64,000 nt of DNA from Klebsiella phage HMGUkp2. Position numbers and translations under genes: made by a program. The first letter of the stretch is position 1. Every line of letters begins with the position of its first letter. The notes beneath the pieces are model-generated. The model made no database searches. It was not told where the DNA came from and saw only the letters and a program-made list of their open reading frames with translations. Where the stretch lies: sequence record PV683292.1. One strand, 5' to 3'. Below, piece after piece: positions 7,416 through 11,822 of the stretch.

Positions 7416-8779
<1,364 letters not shown>

Positions 8780-8780
<1 letters not shown>

Positions 8781-8818
8781 TTTACAACGGCTGGAAGGCA
8801 TGATATGATGTACTTCCA
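8780..8818 (+). promoter_or_regulatory. T4-type early promoter GTTTAC-N18-TATGAT with -10 in loop of 7-bp stem CTGGAAG/CTTCCAG (PeSL-like)
   Basis: seen in sequence. Confidence 0.6.
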
Positions 8819-8844
8819 GTCTACTTGTACTTGAGGAAAATGAT

Positions 8845-9060
8845 ATGTACAATAAGCATCATGAAGTTGAAGAAGAAGCTTACAAAATGCTTCGGAAATG
8901 TGTTGGAATGAGCATAACCCCAGCTTTGATTAATGAACTGGCGCGTATTCGTACAGACCTGAATACTCGTTACAAAGATGAGTACCACGTTGAGTTTTTG
9001 CCTCTTTCTGATGTTAATACGCATTTCGTTGTTAATGTTAAAGTACACACCGTTCATTAA
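8845..9060 (+). CDS. hypothetical protein
   Basis: 71-aa ORF downstream of early promoter/stem-loop at 8780-8818. Confidence 0.45.
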   Translation: MYNKHHEVEEEAYKMLRKCVGMSITPALINELARIRTDLNTRYKDEYHVEFLPLSDVNTHFVVNVKVHTVH

Positions 9061-9069
9061 GGAAAAGCT

Positions 9070-9348
9070 ATGTTCCCTAAATATTCTGAAGTAGTTAAAG
9101 TTGTTGCCTTGCAGGTTGTTGGTAATTACTGTGCTGATACCCTTGACAACTCCTTGAAAGCTAAAATGCACGCGGATTTCACAAGTGCTATTAATACGCT
9201 TATTCCAAATCATGGTAAAGTATCTCTCGAAGTAAATAGCATTGGCCTTCAGGCAGTTGTCGAAATTGTCTTTGAAGGCGGTGGTGGATTCACTGTTGAA
9301 GTAACAGGCATTTTCGGCACCCAAGAGGTTAATGTTTATGTACAGTGA
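9070..9348 (+). CDS. hypothetical protein
   Basis: 92-aa ORF with SD (aagga) upstream. Confidence 0.45.
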   Translation: MFPKYSEVVKVVALQVVGNYCADTLDNSLKAKMHADFTSAINTLIPNHGKVSLEVNSIGLQAVVEIVFEGGGGFTVEVTGIFGTQEVNVYVQ

Positions 9349-9568
9349 TAAGACCTTCACAGCTTCAGAGTTTGCCGAGCTAATTCCTAAGTTTGCTCAA
9401 TCTTTGATTAATAAGATATCTGAACGTAACCCAAGCGCAAAGCTAAATGTGACGCAGGAAACACCTGCGTCTTATCTATTTACCGTTAAAGGTTTCAAGT
9501 CAGAGTACTACTTGATTGAGTTATTGCCTAATAATCATATTCAATCTACCTCAGTATATGCTTTCTAA
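9332..9568 (+). CDS. hypothetical protein
   Basis: 78-aa ORF followed by GC hairpin 9566-9583. Confidence 0.45.
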   Translation: MFMYSDKTFTASEFAELIPKFAQSLINKISERNPSAKLNVTQETPASYLFTVKGFKSEYYLIELLPNNHIQSTSVYAF

Positions 9569-9611
9569 GGGCTTCGGCCCTTACTGGAGAATAATGTAAA
9601 TAAGGAACAAT

Positions 9612-10604
9612 ATGAGACCTTTAGTCGAAAGAATGATAAGCCCGGCTGAACTTGAGCGTCGTTGTAGGATTTCTCCAGAGCTGCAAAATCAAGTCAGTTT
9701 ACACCGCCAAGAAATCGATAAGATTATGACTGGGCACGATAAACGCCGTCTGGTTGTAGTAGGACCTTGTTCAATCCATGACGTAGTTGCTGCAGTTGAT
9801 TATGGTGAGCGCTTGGCTGAACTCCAAAAAGAACTTCCTAATCTTCTGCTTTGTATGCGTGTTTATTTTGAAAAACCTCGTACAACTGTCGGTTGGAAAG
9901 GTCTTATCAATGACCCATTCTTAGACGGCTCGTTTGAAATTAATGCTGGACTGGGTATTGCTCGCACCTTATGTCGCAAGCTTTTGCGAATGGGCCTACC
10001 GCTGGCAACAGAAGTTCTTGATCCGTTCACAATCAAATATCTGTCCGGTATTTTCTCTTGGGTCGCTATTGGCGCTCGCACTACCGAATCACAGACTCAT
10101 CGCGAAATCGCCTCAGGCCTGCCAATGACTGTCGGTTTTAAGAACGGGACAAATGGCTCTATTAAGGTTGCTACTGACGCTATGCAATCTGCGGCGTTCC
10201 CACACCACTATATGGGAATGGACCAAAACGGTGTGGTAGGCATTGTCTCAGCGCCAGGTAACAAGAGTACTCATATTGTTCTGCGTGGCGGTTCAGAAGG
10301 AACTAACTACGATAAAGAATCGGTTTTTGATGCTATCTCTCAGGCCCAGAAGGCCGGGGTTAACCAATACTTGATGGTTGATTGCTCTCATGCTAACGCC
10401 CAAGGTTCTTTCTTGAACCAGGTTGCAGTTTGTGCTGAAGCAGCAGAACTAGCGAACGTTCGAGGAATTATGTTAGAATCTAACCTTAAACAAGGTAATC
10501 AAAAGATTTCTACAGACCTTGAATATGGTGTATCAATTACTGATGCGTGTATTGGCTGGGAAACCACTGAAATGGTTCTCCGTAATCTGAATAACAAAGG
10601 TTAA
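9612..10604 (+). CDS. 3-deoxy-D-arabino-heptulosonate-7-phosphate (DAHP) synthase, class I (AroG/AroF/AroH type)
   Basis: 330 aa; diagnostic class-I DAHP synthase motifs RVYFEKPRTTVGWKGLINDP, IGARTTESQ.HRE.ASGL, GFKNGT.G, SITDACIGWE; alignable along full length with E. coli AroG. Confidence 0.9.
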   Translation: MRPLVERMISPAELERRCRISPELQNQVSLHRQEIDKIMTGHDKRRLVVVGPCSIHDVVAAVDYGERLAELQKELPNLLLCMRVYFEKPRTTVGWKGLINDPFLDGSFEINAGLGIARTLCRKLLRMGLPLATEVLDPFTIKYLSGIFSWVAIGARTTESQTHREIASGLPMTVGFKNGTNGSIKVATDAMQSAAFPHHYMGMDQNGVVGIVSAPGNKSTHIVLRGGSEGTNYDKESVFDAISQAQKAGVNQYLMVDCSHANAQGSFLNQVAVCAEAAELANVRGIMLESNLKQGNQKISTDLEYGVSITDACIGWETTEMVLRNLNNKG

Positions 10605-10606
10605 AA

Positions 10607-11167
10607 ATGAAAGCATCTACCTATCTTCAAATCGCATACCTGATTTCCCAAGAATCAAAATGCTGCTCTTGGAAAGTAGGTGCGGTTATCGAAAAAGATG
10701 GTCGCATCATTTCTACAGGGTATAACGGTTCTCCGGCCGGCGGAACTAACTGTTGTGACCATGCCGCACAGCAAGGTTGGACCAAGTTTATTCCTAATTC
10801 TGGGTCTGGCCGAATTTCAGGCAAAGGTGGACAAGTTGTTCTGGCTAAAGAACACAGACCCGCACATAGTGAATGGTCTTCTAAAAATGAAATCCACGCC
10901 GAACTGAACGCTATTTTGTTCGCGGCCCGTAAAGGTTCTTCAATTGAAGGCTCCACTCTGTATTGCACTGCATCTCCTTGCCCTGATTGTACTAAAGCTA
11001 TTTCTCAGTCAGGTATTAAAAAGGTTGTTTATGCGGAGCGCTATGATCGCTCTCCTGATGACTGGGCTGATATTCTGGTTGAAGCCGGAATTGAAGTTAT
11101 TGAATATAACCGTAAGAATCTTAACTCTCTGAACTGGGAACAGATTCGTAATTTTTGTGGTGAATAA
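10607..11167 (+). CDS. cd: dCMP deaminase
   Basis: 186 aa; zinc-binding HAE...PCxxC motifs (HAELNAI, SPCPDCTKAI); T4 synteny before 31.2/31.1/31. Confidence 0.9.
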   Translation: MKASTYLQIAYLISQESKCCSWKVGAVIEKDGRIISTGYNGSPAGGTNCCDHAAQQGWTKFIPNSGSGRISGKGGQVVLAKEHRPAHSEWSSKNEIHAELNAILFAARKGSSIEGSTLYCTASPCPDCTKAISQSGIKKVVYAERYDRSPDDWADILVEAGIEVIEYNRKNLNSLNWEQIRNFCGE

Positions 11168-11502
11168 TGAATCTTAACGAATTCGACTCTATCGTAAGCA
11201 TCAACCCGCCTATGCCAGAGCCTGTAGATGCAACTGAAAAATTTGCATTTATGCTCAAAGCTGCCGGTATTAATGTAATTGTTATCGGCGCTCCTTCGTT
11301 TTCTGTACAAACTATAAAACGTGGCGAGCGTTACAAAGTTGATATTGCATCTTTCAAGGCCCAGGATCTGGATCATCTGGTTTCTGAGATCGTGAAATTT
11401 AATCCGGATGTAGTTTATCTGCGTGAAGTAAAAGACTTTACTGAAATTGAAGGTAAACCTGCATACACTGTTCGCTTTAACTTTATTAAGGTAGAAGTAT
11501 GA
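11167..11502 (+). CDS. hypothetical protein (31.2-position)
   Basis: 111-aa ORF, ATGA overlap with cd. Confidence 0.5.
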   Translation: MNLNEFDSIVSINPPMPEPVDATEKFAFMLKAAGINVIVIGAPSFSVQTIKRGERYKVDIASFKAQDLDHLVSEIVKFNPDVVYLREVKDFTEIEGKPAYTVRFNFIKVEV

Positions 11503-11822
11503 AATTAACTACTGACCAAAAAATTGCTCTGCGTGAAGTTCTGAAAGTCAAACTATCCATGGGCGTATCAGATATAGTTTTCGAAAAAGCAGACGGCACT
11601 ATTCGTACTATGAAAGGTACCCGTGATAAAGATGTAGTTTCTTCTCTAGTTGGCGCCGAGATCTATGAAAGTTATGTGAATCCTTCTAAGCCACGTAAAG
11701 AATCCACCGATATGGTTCCTCTGTTTGATACCGAATTAAAACAATGGCGTGGATTCAGCATTGACAAACTGATCTCTGTTAACGGCATGAAAGCAGAACA
11801 TTTACTCCAATTTGTTGGCTAA
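11499..11822 (+). CDS. hypothetical protein (31.1-position)
   Basis: 107-aa ORF overlapping upstream gene. Confidence 0.5.
   Translation: MKLTTDQKIALREVLKVKLSMGVSDIVFEKADGTIRTMKGTRDKDVVSSLVGAEIYESYVNPSKPRKESTDMVPLFDTELKQWRGFSIDKLISVNGMKAEHLLQFVG

Follow-up and report, generated by a model that had tools for sequence, protein, structure and literature searches.

Why should a T4-like phage carry a gene for DAHP synthase (DAHPS), an enzyme of entry into the shikimate pathway, amid its nucleotide-metabolism genes? The question is raised by Klebsiella phage HMGUkp2 (PV683292.1), of which a stretch of 64,000 nucleotides, here called the window, was analyzed; with 95.7% identity to Klebsiella phage Marfa over 25 kb, the window represents another Marfavirus. 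The gene call itself is routine, and the interest lies in why the gene is there. The initial annotation correctly placed it in the pseT-cd early region and stated that T4 lacks it: the gene separates cd.2 from cd, a position occupied in T4 by cd.1 alone (112 aa), with pseT (7585-8487), a cd.3-like gene (DUF7355) and a cd.2-like gene (DUF7320) upstream and, in this order, cd, 31.2, 31.1 (WYL_2), gp31 and rIII downstream. The immediate locus comprises the following features.

9332..9568, plus strand: cd.2-like small ORF (DUF7320; Pfam PF24005, E=1.9e-25), the conserved upstream neighbor
9602..9606, plus strand: Shine-Dalgarno-like AAGGA, 5 nt 5' of the ATG (from the sequence)
9612..10604, plus strand: coding sequence of a type I-alpha DAHP synthase (ORF; Pfam, NCBIfam and PDB matches; alignments; AF2 model; dN/dS)
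10607..11167, plus strand: dCMP deaminase gene, cd (ORF; Pfam PF00383, E=5.4e-27; Marfa annotation)

In the ORF list of the window, the gene is a 330-aa frame running from ATG to TAA, and its translation contains all four of the DAHPS motifs originally quoted (YFEKPRTTVGWKGLINDP, IGARTTESQ, GFKNGT and DACIGWE). It has a Shine-Dalgarno sequence of its own, as had been proposed, and the annotation of phage Marfa lists a ribosome-binding site at the corresponding place. The cd.2-like upstream neighbor is syntenic in Marfa, JS09, PEi20 and T4. On the downstream side, cd starts (10607) 2 nt past the DAHPS stop codon and has its ribosome-binding site within the 3' end of the DAHPS gene, so that co-transcription of the two genes is likely. 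DAHPS is probably expressed alongside the early nucleotide-metabolism genes (pseT through cd). Two further features are relevant to transcription.

8780..8809, plus strand: candidate T4-early-type promoter, GTTTACA - 17 nt - TATGAT with TG, in the gap before the ORF at 8845
9568..9581, plus strand: hairpin AGGGC-UUCG-GCCCU with a C(UUCG)G tetraloop, in the 43-nt intergenic spacer (sequence and fold)

The promoter candidate, which has 10 of 12 consensus matches plus the TG in a consensus scan of the sequence, would be the nearest plausible start for the transcription unit that holds DAHPS and cd; it is a lead only, because the regional count of promoter-like sequences is no higher than in shuffles. 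Right upstream of the gene (9540-9611, read by eye), no convincing dedicated promoter or MotA box was seen. The hairpin reported next to the gene is present (GGGC-TTCG-GCCC at 9569-9580, directly behind the stop codon of the preceding ORF), but its proposed part in bounding the transcription unit was rejected: no U-tract follows, so it is no intrinsic terminator, the terminator scan did not report it, and its fold in the 71-nt context is unexceptional (z = -0.91). Moreover, it is confined to Marfa-type phages, where it belongs to a 40-nt intergenic insert; in JS09, PEi20 and CHI14, there is no hairpin and the DAHPS gene abuts the upstream ORF. The hairpin may serve as an RNA-stability or processing element.

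Does the gene encode an active enzyme? The protein passes Pfam PF00793 (E=2.4e-76, 256.6 bits; cutoff 25.5), TIGR00034 (429.7 bits; cutoff 173.2) and NF009395 (454.8 bits; cutoff 343) and matches E. coli AroF (PDB 6agm) with E=5e-99, so its best matches fall within the DAHP synthase family, in accord with the initial call of a full-length class I enzyme, here specified as type I-alpha and AroF/G/H-like. The catalytic apparatus is intact. The metal ligands C53, H260, E289 and D311 (Cys61, His268, Glu302 and Asp326 in AroG) are all kept, being invariant in alignments with AroG, AroF, AroH and five phage homologs as well as across 129 sequences; conserved, too, are the PEP residues R83, K88, G154-A155-R156, K177 and R225 and the erythrose-4-phosphate (E4P) motif K88-P-R90-T91 (in AroG numbering, R92, K97-P-R99-T100, G163-A164-R165, K186 and R234). 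The AF2 model (pLDDT 92.9, pTM 0.92) is a (beta/alpha)8 barrel with N-terminal helices and the beta6a/beta6b insertion (strands 198-203 and 209-214); in a Foldseek search, it matched 8e0z, 1gg1, 4hsn and 1hfb, solved structures of AroG, the Neisseria (Nme) DAH7PS and Aro4, with TM 0.94-0.96 and rmsd 1.4-1.7 A. With E. coli AroF, AroG and AroH (6agm, 1kfl/1qr7), the phage protein thus has in common the fold (TM 0.94-0.96), the metal ligands, the KPRT and GARTTESQ motifs and the beta6a/beta6b insertion, whereas it is shorter (330 aa vs 348-356 aa), shows 49-50% identity to AroG and AroF and 45% to AroH, and belongs to a separate, phage-only clade. Judged by sequence and modeled fold, the gene product is very probably a functional, catalytically competent type I-alpha DAHP synthase that converts PEP and erythrose-4-phosphate to DAHP.

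A different specificity deserves consideration given that PF00793 is common to DAHPS and KDO8P synthase and that the phage modification cluster is reminiscent of KdsD, KdsC and KdsB without KdsA. Under this alternative, the enzyme would join PEP to arabinose-5-phosphate, in the manner of KDO8P synthase, or to another sugar phosphate, yielding a sugar acid for DNA glycosylation. Three phage enzymes, a nucleotidyltransferase, a HAD phosphatase and an arabinose-5-phosphate isomerase, would be its partners. Such a scheme is very improbable. KPRT marks a DAHPS where a KDO8P synthase has KANRS, and the phage protein retains the DAHPS-type KPRT along with all E4P and PEP ligands; it scores as aroFGH (429.7 bits), and KDO8P synthase models are absent among its matches. 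Furthermore, RB69 has sugars of the arabinose rather than the octulosonate type, arabinose having been identified in both RB69 and DLP3, and RB69 lacks the DAHPS gene. The DAHPS genes fused to chorismate mutase in other phages point to the shikimate pathway.

The gene is already known, being annotated at the same locus in nearly 200 T4-like phage genomes, and its description as unusual was overstated. It is 94% identical in DNA and 98.5% in protein sequence to the annotated Marfa gene, with protein identity of 58-67% to the homologs in other phage genera; altogether, 212 phage records contain a DAHPS homolog, annotated in most of them. A survey of related T4-like genomes found the same locus in at least five genera (Marfa-, Mosig-, Winkler-, Braga- and Kanagawavirus), with the same gene in Klebsiella phages Marfa, F48 and KLB31, Escherichia phages JS09 and HX01, Serratia phage CHI14, Proteus phage Pm5461 and Edwardsiella phage PEi20, as well as in one metagenomic T4-like contig; T4 and RB69 lack it. 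In the literature, we found no characterized phage DAHPS, the sole mention being that of the Klebsiella phage KLB31 copy, which was called a putative amino-acid auxiliary metabolic gene (AMG) in 2025 (PMC11845039).

The absence from some close relatives, such as RB69, implies that the gene is non-essential and would suit a moron, a passenger gene in decay or devoid of function that contributes nothing to infection. We consider this the least probable of all the readings. The dN/dS ratio is 0.026 in comparison with Marfa and 0.14-0.22 with homologs of other genera, so the phage clade is under purifying selection; the catalytic residues are invariant across genera at synonymous saturation, the locus is conserved, and the GC content is like that of the neighboring genes. 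Recent capture from the host was likewise rejected: the best cellular homologs are non-enterobacterial and only 52-54% identical, AroG, AroF and AroH are 45-50% identical, and the GC content shows no departure from the adjacent genes. In a neighbor-joining tree on Kimura distances, the phage-only clade was monophyletic in 30 of 30 bootstraps. The gene, then, belongs to an old phage-specific clade. It is an AMG in the proper sense, that is, a host-type metabolic enzyme in the genome of a virulent phage that is maintained by selection, and this part of the initial annotation stands; the aromatic amino-acid purpose attached to it is probably incomplete, for reasons set out below.

What distinguishes the phage enzyme from its cellular relatives is the allosteric site. 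Alignment with AroG, AroF and AroH shows the pocket residues replaced throughout the phage clade. The altered positions in the phage protein are P138, I141, K142, P171, Y200 and G202; relative to AroG, P150 is replaced by I141, Q151 by K142, S180 by P171, F209 by Y200 and S211 by G202. Compared with AroG, about 8-10 aa are missing at the N-terminus, and residues 1-8 of AroG have no counterpart in the whole phage clade; the first ~8 residues of AroG are said, after Shumilin et al. 2002, to help form the inhibitor site of the neighboring subunit. The substitution pattern is clade-wide, the outliers being one sequence that keeps P at P150 (P0022) and another that has R at Q151 (P0023). Among the cellular homologs inspected, P150 and S180 are kept in every one, Q151 in all but one (P0047, with E), and the N-terminal segment in all but the N-terminally short P0035. 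G202 is the Tyr-type residue, and the other inhibitor contacts are gone, so the intact inhibitor pocket of the AroG-Phe, AroF-Tyr or AroH-Trp type is not found in the phage protein, which also scores below the cutoffs of the isozyme-specific models for AroG (NF006723; 368.7 bits, cutoff 568) and AroH (NF009396; 378.7 bits, cutoff 463).

Several of these positions are the sites of laboratory mutations. Feedback-resistant AroG results from P150L, S180F and changes at Q151, and the inhibitor contacts include Q151/Q152 and S180/S181 (PMC9529685); in yeast, the Q166K allele of ARO4 confers feedback resistance (PMC5879953), and Q166 appears, by alignment offset, to correspond to AroG Q151. I141, K142 and P171 of the phage protein occupy these very positions, and the phage clade is, like feedback-resistant AroF variants, altered N-terminally, in this case by truncation. 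Single laboratory mutations to feedback resistance often cost activity or stability; the phage changes, in contrast to the laboratory alleles, are natural, fixed, combined and conserved in more than five phage genera, their effect being a prediction. With the N-terminal segment missing and P150, Q151 and S180 replaced by I, K and P, the phage DAHPS is probably feedback-insensitive, and the suggested escape from host feedback inhibition is thereby supported as a residue-level prediction.

The obvious use of such an enzyme would be to provide more Phe, Tyr and Trp for phage protein after host transcription shut-off. This is the textbook role of the enzyme and the reading given for KLB31 (PMC11845039); the intact active site and purifying selection fit it, and any role in raising flux would profit from the loss of the allosteric site. 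Nevertheless, we regard a plain amino-acid AMG, with no particular tie to DNA modification, as possible but rather unlikely. Extra aromatics would bring little gain in the amino-acid-rich gut, and this reading leaves unexplained why T4 and other T4-like phages without a protein of the Peptidase_U32 family (U32) lack DAHPS, whereas 191 of the 212 DAHPS records have U32.

The U32 gene belongs to the 5-hydroxycytosine cluster. In Marfa, the U32 protein (gp040) adjoins a thymidylate-synthase homolog with 79.7% identity to RB69 gp48, a proven 5hodCMP synthase. The cluster is outside the 64-kb window and, for this phage, is expected from the related Marfaviruses; in T4-like genomes, it lies about 60 kb from DAHPS, outside the operon of that gene. 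That distance, together with the absence of DAHPS from RB69, whose DNA is still modified, favors the amino-acid reading. In phage records, searches gave 221 with U32, 212 with DAHPS and, by a fused query, 242 with either, hence 191 with both, counts that are phylogenetically non-independent because the T4-like genera with U32 are related. U32 is present in 24 of 24 DAHPS-positive Klebsiella phage records, and nearly every record with DAHPS but no U32 is either non-T4 or a fragment; conversely, 30 U32-positive records have no DAHPS, including those of six Yersinia phages with U32 and chorismate mutase.

Two further lines of evidence suggest a link between U32 and the shikimate pathway, and neither is explained by amino-acid supply. 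First, a monofunctional CM_2 chorismate mutase lies between U32 and the thymidylate-synthase homolog in 13 of the 15 T4-like IMG/VR loci and in 48 GenBank records, its start and stop codons overlapping with its neighbors in the cluster. The gene is missing from the U32 cluster of Marfa, the closest relative of the window; at its position, Mosigviruses have an unrelated 79-aa ORF, and RB69 likewise has an unrelated ORF. The RB69 ORF (ORF049c) was considered as a divergent chorismate mutase but gained no support, with no Pfam or NCBIfam match and E=6.9 in BLASTP against the phage chorismate mutase. Second, in unrelated phages, independent DAHPS genes occur directly beside the same U32 subfamily, either as bare type I-beta enzymes (L018 and L042) or as DAHPS-CM fusions (4-5 contigs: L051, L052/L053, L054 and L060). 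These non-T4 genes encode type I-beta-like cores, bare (248 aa) or CM_2-fused, comparable to Bacillus/Listeria AroA(G) (NF009239). The CM domain is C-terminal in the phage fusions, whereas in the Bacillus-type DAHPS-CM it is N-terminal and regulatory. The window enzyme, being type I-alpha, unlike the type I-beta enzymes of the non-T4 phages, was independently recruited. In other metagenomic contigs, none of the small ORFs beside U32 matches CM_2. The neighbors of U32 in L060 encode ATP-grasp, OmpA-like and unknown proteins and are uninformative.

The confinement of DAHPS to phages with U32 and the 5-hydroxycytosine cluster, the phage chorismate mutase, and the adjacency of DAHPS or DAHPS-CM to U32 in unrelated phages are the reasons why the amino-acid purpose is probably incomplete. 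The phage U32 proteins form a distinct subfamily, whose only NCBIfam match is a weak one to UbiU, and contain invariant cysteine clusters that are consistent with Fe-S binding. Cellular members of the family, UbiU/V, TrhP and RlhA, have been connected with hydroxylation that depends on prephenate and not on O2, including that yielding 5-hydroxycytidine in rRNA (PMC10990095, PMC6599085, PMC5727448). UbiU/UbiV act in anaerobic ubiquinone synthesis, TrhP in the formation of tRNA ho5U34 and RlhA in that of rRNA ho5C2501, and the RlhA product, 5-hydroxycytidine, embodies the same base chemistry as phage 5-hydroxycytosine. The phage chorismate mutase beside U32 would supply the prephenate that U32 hydroxylation systems require. 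The phage system would differ from the cellular ones in its proposed substrate (dCMP or DNA), in its genome-wide scale, and in that the phage contributes the enzyme of pathway entry and, often, a chorismate mutase as well.

We therefore favor, as the most likely purpose of the phage DAHPS, a role tied to prephenate and U32 in DNA modification, a reading that we would give about an even chance. The dismantled inhibitor pocket would let carbon enter the host shikimate pathway despite plentiful Phe, Tyr and Trp, when the host isozymes are shut; host enzymes would perform the remaining steps to chorismate, and the phage DAHPS would sustain the chorismate-to-prephenate pool. Prephenate would be the oxygen-donor co-substrate of U32-family hydroxylases, here of the phage U32, usually translationally coupled to the phage chorismate mutase, in the cluster for (arabinosylated) 5-hydroxycytosine DNA. 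Deregulated entry would be needed because tens of thousands of cytosines per genome would be hydroxylated by a prephenate-consuming route, and the need would be greatest in the anoxic, amino-acid-rich gut. More broadly, and somewhat more tentatively, we propose that 5-hydroxycytosine T4-like phages and several unrelated phages possess a self-provisioned, O2-independent pathway of pyrimidine hydroxylation, in which DAHPS would open the route, the phage chorismate mutase would make prephenate, and U32, as an Fe-S enzyme, would produce genome-wide 5-hydroxy-dC. In E. coli, O2/flavin and prephenate routes coexist (TrhO and TrhP; UbiIHF and UbiUV); the phage pair may do likewise, the prephenate route complementing the O2/flavin-dependent, thymidylate-synthase-like one.

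Several observations count against a prephenate role. In vitro hydroxylation has so far been demonstrated for no U32 protein, and the thymidylate-synthase homolog together with a dNMP kinase suffices for 5hodC in E. coli plasmid DNA, possibly with flavin; the paper describing 5hodC gives U32, chorismate mutase and DAHPS no role. DAHPS is dispensable for the modification, since RB69, in which cd.2 directly adjoins cd, modifies its DNA without it and 30 U32-positive records lack it.

Chorismate could also be consumed otherwise, for p-aminobenzoate and folate (thymidylate-synthase-family enzymes, baseplate folate), quinones or carboxy-SAM. The gene lies among nucleotide-metabolism genes, next to cd, thymidylate-synthase-type enzymes depend on folate, and a phage DNA modification that consumes prephenate via CmoA and carboxy-SAM does exist (PMC12783734). 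Even so, we find this improbable: folates and quinones are required only catalytically, T4 also needs folate yet lacks the gene, and the co-encoded chorismate mutase diverts chorismate away from p-aminobenzoate and quinones toward prephenate. For the preferred prephenate-U32 role, the same modification, the carboxymethylcytosine of Synechococcus phage S-B43 made by CmoA/CmoX, is a precedent for stoichiometric use of prephenate in phage DNA modification, with different chemistry (carboxy-SAM, carboxymethyl transfer); its authors point to the availability of prephenate as a matter still to be settled, mentioning the shikimate pathway once, with regard to host prephenate availability, and chorismate not at all (PMC12783734). 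Another candidate function, an erythrose-4-phosphate sink that draws pentose phosphates for arabinosylation, was rejected on theoretical grounds, since E4P is already recycled by transaldolase and transketolase and the PEP would be spent to no purpose.

Beyond the earlier reading of the gene, the present analysis adds the loss of the allosteric site in a monophyletic clade and the pairing with U32, which recurs in unrelated phages. If feedback-blind, the phage enzyme would be a natural, ready-made deregulated DAHPS, of interest to those who engineer the shikimate pathway. A tie to U32 and chorismate mutase, if real, would offer a testable answer to the "unexpected chemistry" of C5 hydroxylation and to the unexplained U32 gene of the cluster, extend the use of prephenate as an oxygen donor, so far a matter of RNA and quinones, to viral DNA, and explain how gut phages hypermodify their DNA without oxygen. 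It would also predict host aro, pheA and tyrA genotypes and growth conditions that weaken the anti-restriction armor of therapeutic Klebsiella and E. coli phages. Should the prephenate pathway prove true, the DAHPS in the window would count as a supply gene for DNA modification, not as an AMG for amino acids, and these phages would be the first viruses seen to rewire aromatic biosynthesis to gain an oxygen donor.

The initial annotation had read a full-length class I DAHP synthase (DAHPS) with all its characteristic motifs in this region, and both the ORF and its translation confirm this. Two of the ORFs at this locus are:

9612..10604, + strand: DAHPS ORF, ATG to TAA, 330 aa (ORF and translation)
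8821-9360, - strand: GTG-initiated ORF, 179 aa, antisense to the small genes 8845-9060, 9070-9348 and 9332-9568

The antisense ORF is almost certainly spurious, as the + strand genes it crosses are supported by Pfam matches and annotated in Marfa. The window belongs to a Marfavirus (its first 25 kb are 95.7% identical to Klebsiella phage Marfa), with the gene order pseT, four small ORFs (two of them DUF7355/cd.3-like and DUF7320/cd.2-like), DAHPS, dCMP deaminase (cd), 31.2, 31.1 (WYL_2), gp31 and rIII, which matches T4 here except that in T4 cd.1 occupies the DAHPS slot. The cd.2-like ORF upstream stops at 9568, and a GGGC-UUCG-GCCC hairpin comes next; the DAHPS ATG has an AAGGA Shine-Dalgarno sequence 5 nt before it, and cd begins 2 nt past the DAHPS stop. 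The 31.1 homologue (11499-11822) is a WYL_2/Sm-like SH3 beta-barrel protein (PF10902, E=5.5e-16), and T4 31.1 is annotated alike. No tRNA or tmRNA genes were found by ARAGORN in the entire 64-kb window (1-64000).

Pfam, NCBIfam and solved-structure matches agree on the family: PF00793 (E=2.4e-76), the aroFGH equivalog TIGR00034 (429.7 bits, cutoff 173), NF009395 (454.8 bits, cutoff 343), and, as the closest structures, E. coli AroF, Neisseria DAH7PS, AroG and yeast Aro4 (E=1e-94 to 5e-99). The best matches stay inside the DAHPS family and no catalytic residue is lost: the metal ligands C53, H260, E289 and D311, the PEP ligands R83, K88, G154-A155-R156, K177 and R225, and the E4P motif K88-P-R90-T91 are invariant in alignments with AroG, AroF, AroH and phage homologues. 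An AlphaFold2 model built from 48 input sequences (pLDDT 92.9, pTM 0.92) gives TM-scores of 0.94-0.96 with AroG, NmeDAH7PS and Aro4. Judged by its sequence, the product is a type I-alpha DAHPS.

The gene call itself is ordinary and already known. The earlier view that the gene is unusual does not survive comparison, given that about 190 related genomes already carry the annotation and the auxiliary metabolic gene (AMG) label is in print: the copy in phage KLB31 was named an amino-acid AMG, as a general hypothesis only, in a 2025 Klebsiella phage paper (PMC11845039). A literature search found no experimental work on a phage DAHPS. Megablast matched 23 Klebsiella Marfavirus records (92-95% identity), and tblastn detected homologues in 212 phage records, most of them annotated as phospho-2-dehydro-3-deoxyheptonate aldolase, DAHP synthase or aroF; DAHPS of any kind is present in only 0.4% of phage records. 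The cd.2-to-cd slot holds DAHPS in Marfa, JS09 (Mosigvirus), CHI14 (Winklervirus), Pm5461 (Bragavirus) and PEi20 (Kanagawavirus), as well as in a metagenomic T4-like contig; at this locus, T4 lacks the gene.

The T4-like phage copies form a single clade (30/30 neighbor-joining bootstrap replicates). Among cellular proteins, the closest (Geomonas, Halomonas, MAGs) reach only 52-54% identity and the E. coli isozymes 45-50%, which points to an old phage lineage and rules out recent capture from a host. Comparison with Marfa gives a dN/dS ratio of 0.026, and comparison with other genera, for which synonymous sites are saturated, gives 0.14-0.22; GC content is in line with that of the adjacent genes. 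Two records are labelling or contamination traps when host origin is inferred, namely P0010, a phage DAHPS cluster (164 member sequences, longest contig 170,875 bp) labelled by NCBI as an Escherichia coli protein, and AGRM01000002.1, a 691-kb Salmonella contig inside a 'phages' collection. Distant homologues (31-49% identity) occur in 'Bacteriophage sp.' gut contigs, Acinetobacter phage MD-2021a contigs and Aeromonas phage HJ05; in these records (H79-H83, H256, H257), no Peptidase_U32 (U32) gene was detected, and they may represent separate acquisitions or mis-binned bacterial DNA.

Members of the phage clade have unchanged catalytic residues and a remodelled inhibitor pocket. AroG P150, Q151, S180, F209 and S211 correspond to phage I141, K142, P171, Y200 and G202; among clade members, sequence P0022 retains Pro at the P150 position and P0023 has Arg, not Lys, at the Q151 position. 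In the 129-sequence alignment, every cellular homologue inspected retains P150 and S180, all but one retain Q151 (Glu in P0047), and all but P0035, which has a short N-terminus, retain the N-terminal D/N pair. The phage protein begins at the equivalent of AroG R9, leaving AroG residues 1-8 without a counterpart; we take the pocket to be completed by the extreme N-terminus of the partner subunit (Asp6/Asp7 in AroG, Asn8/Ile11 in AroF). The protein also scores under the cutoffs of the AroG- and AroH-specific NCBIfam models. In AroG, P150L abolishes Phe inhibition and S180F is resistant, and in AroG and AroF the main chain of the bound inhibitor is contacted by Q151/Q152 and S180/S181 (PMC9529685). 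A feedback-resistant allele known from yeast is ARO4 Q166K (PMC5879953); because the alignment offsets agree, we infer that Q166 is the AroG Q151 position, where the phage clade naturally carries Lys. From the remodelled pocket and the N-terminal loss, the enzyme is predicted to be, quite probably, insensitive to Phe, Tyr and Trp, so that the feedback bypass suggested in the initial annotation gains support as a prediction.

The U32 gene came to light when Marfa was checked for further aromatic-pathway genes. Between DNA polymerase and uvsX, a "peptidase", which is a Peptidase_U32 protein, lies beside a "thymidylate synthase" with 79.7% identity to RB69 gp48. RB69 gp48 was recently shown to make 5-hydroxy-dCMP (5hodCMP) for arabinosylated 5-hydroxycytosine DNA, in a hydroxylation termed "unexpected chemistry" with a flavin-like cofactor noted; in aerobic E. 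coli the thymidylate-synthase homologue alone suffices, and the phages listed with the gp48 cluster include Marfa-, Mosig-, Braga- and Kanagawaviruses (bioRxiv 10.1101/2025.06.16.659550 = PMC13326640). U32, prephenate, chorismate mutase (CM) and DAHPS are mentioned nowhere in PMC13326640, and the published 5-hydroxycytosine pathway papers leave the U32 and CM genes of the cluster undiscussed. [quoted passage not shown] In the proposed mechanism, prephenate is spent stoichiometrically, giving phenylpyruvate and CO2; none of the U32 proteins has so far been reconstituted in vitro. The cluster lies outside the 64-kb window, and in T4-like phages DAHPS is ~60 kb away from it.

5-hydroxycytosine/arabinosylation clusters with a Peptidase_U32 gene
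L013:21590-26293, Marfa
L014:1555-8033, KLB31
L015:827-6491, PWKp16
L017:1055-7606, RB69

In most genera, a translationally coupled CM_2 gene, encoding a CM of 79-81 aa (Pfam CM_2, 38-39 bits, cutoff 27), lies directly upstream of the thymidylate-synthase-like 5hodCMP synthase, between it and U32, with overlapping stop and start codons. It is present in the U32 cluster of KLB31, PWKp16, 13 of the 15 T4-like IMG/VR loci and 48 GenBank records. Marfa and RB69 have in its place:

L013:22304-22346, reverse strand: 43-bp spacer replacing the CM gene in Marfa
L017:5158-5397: RB69 ORF049c, 79 aa, in the CM slot between U32 and gp48

In the Marfa spacer, TATAAT follows a terminator-like hairpin, AAAGAGGCTTTGGCCTCTTT; F48-type Marfaviruses have CM in that slot. 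CM has thus been cleanly lost within the genus, and the window's phage may or may not carry it. RB69 and Mosigviruses have an unrelated ORF in the slot; ORF049c shows no detected similarity to chorismate mutase or any Pfam/NCBIfam family, and it represents either replacement of CM by a non-homologous gene or extreme divergence.

The number of phage records with a U32 homologue is 221, and their host breakdown is nearly identical to that of DAHPS. A fused DAHPS+U32 tblastn query matched 242 records at 434 places, the exact sum of the places from the separate searches; thus, 191 records hold both genes, although the T4-like counts are not phylogenetically independent.

Phage records by host genus (hosts taken from phage names; DAHPS, U32 and fused-query tblastn combined)
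Escherichia phages: both 123, DAHPS only 2, U32 only 14
Klebsiella phages: both 24, DAHPS only 0, U32 only 1
Shigella phages: both 12, DAHPS only 0, U32 only 2
Serratia phages: both 6, DAHPS only 0, U32 only 1
Proteus phages: both 7, DAHPS only 0, U32 only 0
Enterobacter phages: both 4, DAHPS only 0, U32 only 0
Yersinia phages: both 0, DAHPS only 0, U32 only 6

Since the other DAHPS-only records comprise unrelated "Bacteriophage sp." or Acinetobacter contigs, one bacterial contig and fragments, DAHPS in T4-like phages is nested inside the U32-bearing set. RB69 has U32 and lacks DAHPS, which is dispensable in RB69 and in Tegunaviruses; no Tequatrovirus is among the U32 matches listed.

The phage U32 subfamily (about 360-390 aa; invariant C158/C192/C203/C209/C233 and a C-terminal CX4CX3CX2C motif) is widespread in non-T4 phage contigs, including contigs of 150-470 kb with DnaE-type polymerases (loci L018-L023 and L040-L071, with U32 at about 10001-11100 in most). 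It is accompanied there by genes for dNMP kinase, dCMP deaminase, dUTPase/DCD, UDG-like and glycosyltransferase proteins; only one of the non-T4 loci has a thymidylate-synthase homologue within 10 kb of U32. Hydroxylation of DNA or nucleotides may be the function of this subfamily itself. DAHPS lies beside U32 in 6 of the 32 non-T4 IMG/VR loci and in L018, on IMG/VR and Logan contigs unrelated to T4. The gene right after U32 is either a bare 248-aa type I-beta DAHPS without a regulatory domain or a DAHPS with a C-terminal CM_2 domain:

L018:9145-9891, bare type I-beta DAHPS
L042:9384-10130, bare type I-beta DAHPS
L051:8411-9433, DAHPS-CM fusion
L053:7302-8357 (=L052), DAHPS-CM fusion
L054:8338-9393, DAHPS-CM fusion
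L060:11076-12194, DAHPS-CM fusion

Together with type I-alpha plus separate CM, three different architectures have thus been recruited beside one U32 subfamily.

The simplest reading covering all observations is a supply chain, in which DAHPS, deregulated by pocket loss or by absence of a regulatory domain, would open the shikimate pathway, host enzymes would carry it on to chorismate, phage or host CM would yield prephenate, and phage U32 would use it up. Going beyond the identity of the enzyme, we infer a role tied to prephenate and U32 with about an even chance of being correct. A plain AMG for aromatic amino acids is a possible but distinctly less probable alternative, and other chorismate products, altered substrate specificity or lack of function carry small weights. 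Supply of prephenate would account for the position of DAHPS beside cd, in a nucleotide-metabolism region. With about 70,000 cytosines in a ~169-kb genome at 41% GC, a burst size of about 100 would imply a demand for some 10^7 prephenate molecules; by a rough estimate from standard E. coli composition, this is a sizeable fraction of the normal Phe plus Tyr flux of the cell. In the amino-acid-rich gut, host DAHPS would be feedback-inhibited and repressed. It is plausible that the thymidylate-synthase-like flavin route works with O2 and the U32/prephenate route without it, on the model of the TrhO/TrhP and UbiIHF/UbiUV pairs. Two points seem worth keeping: the consistent loss of the allosteric site, and the genomic coupling of phage DAHPS and CM to a U32 hydroxylase gene in DNA-hypermodification clusters, which was previously unremarked.
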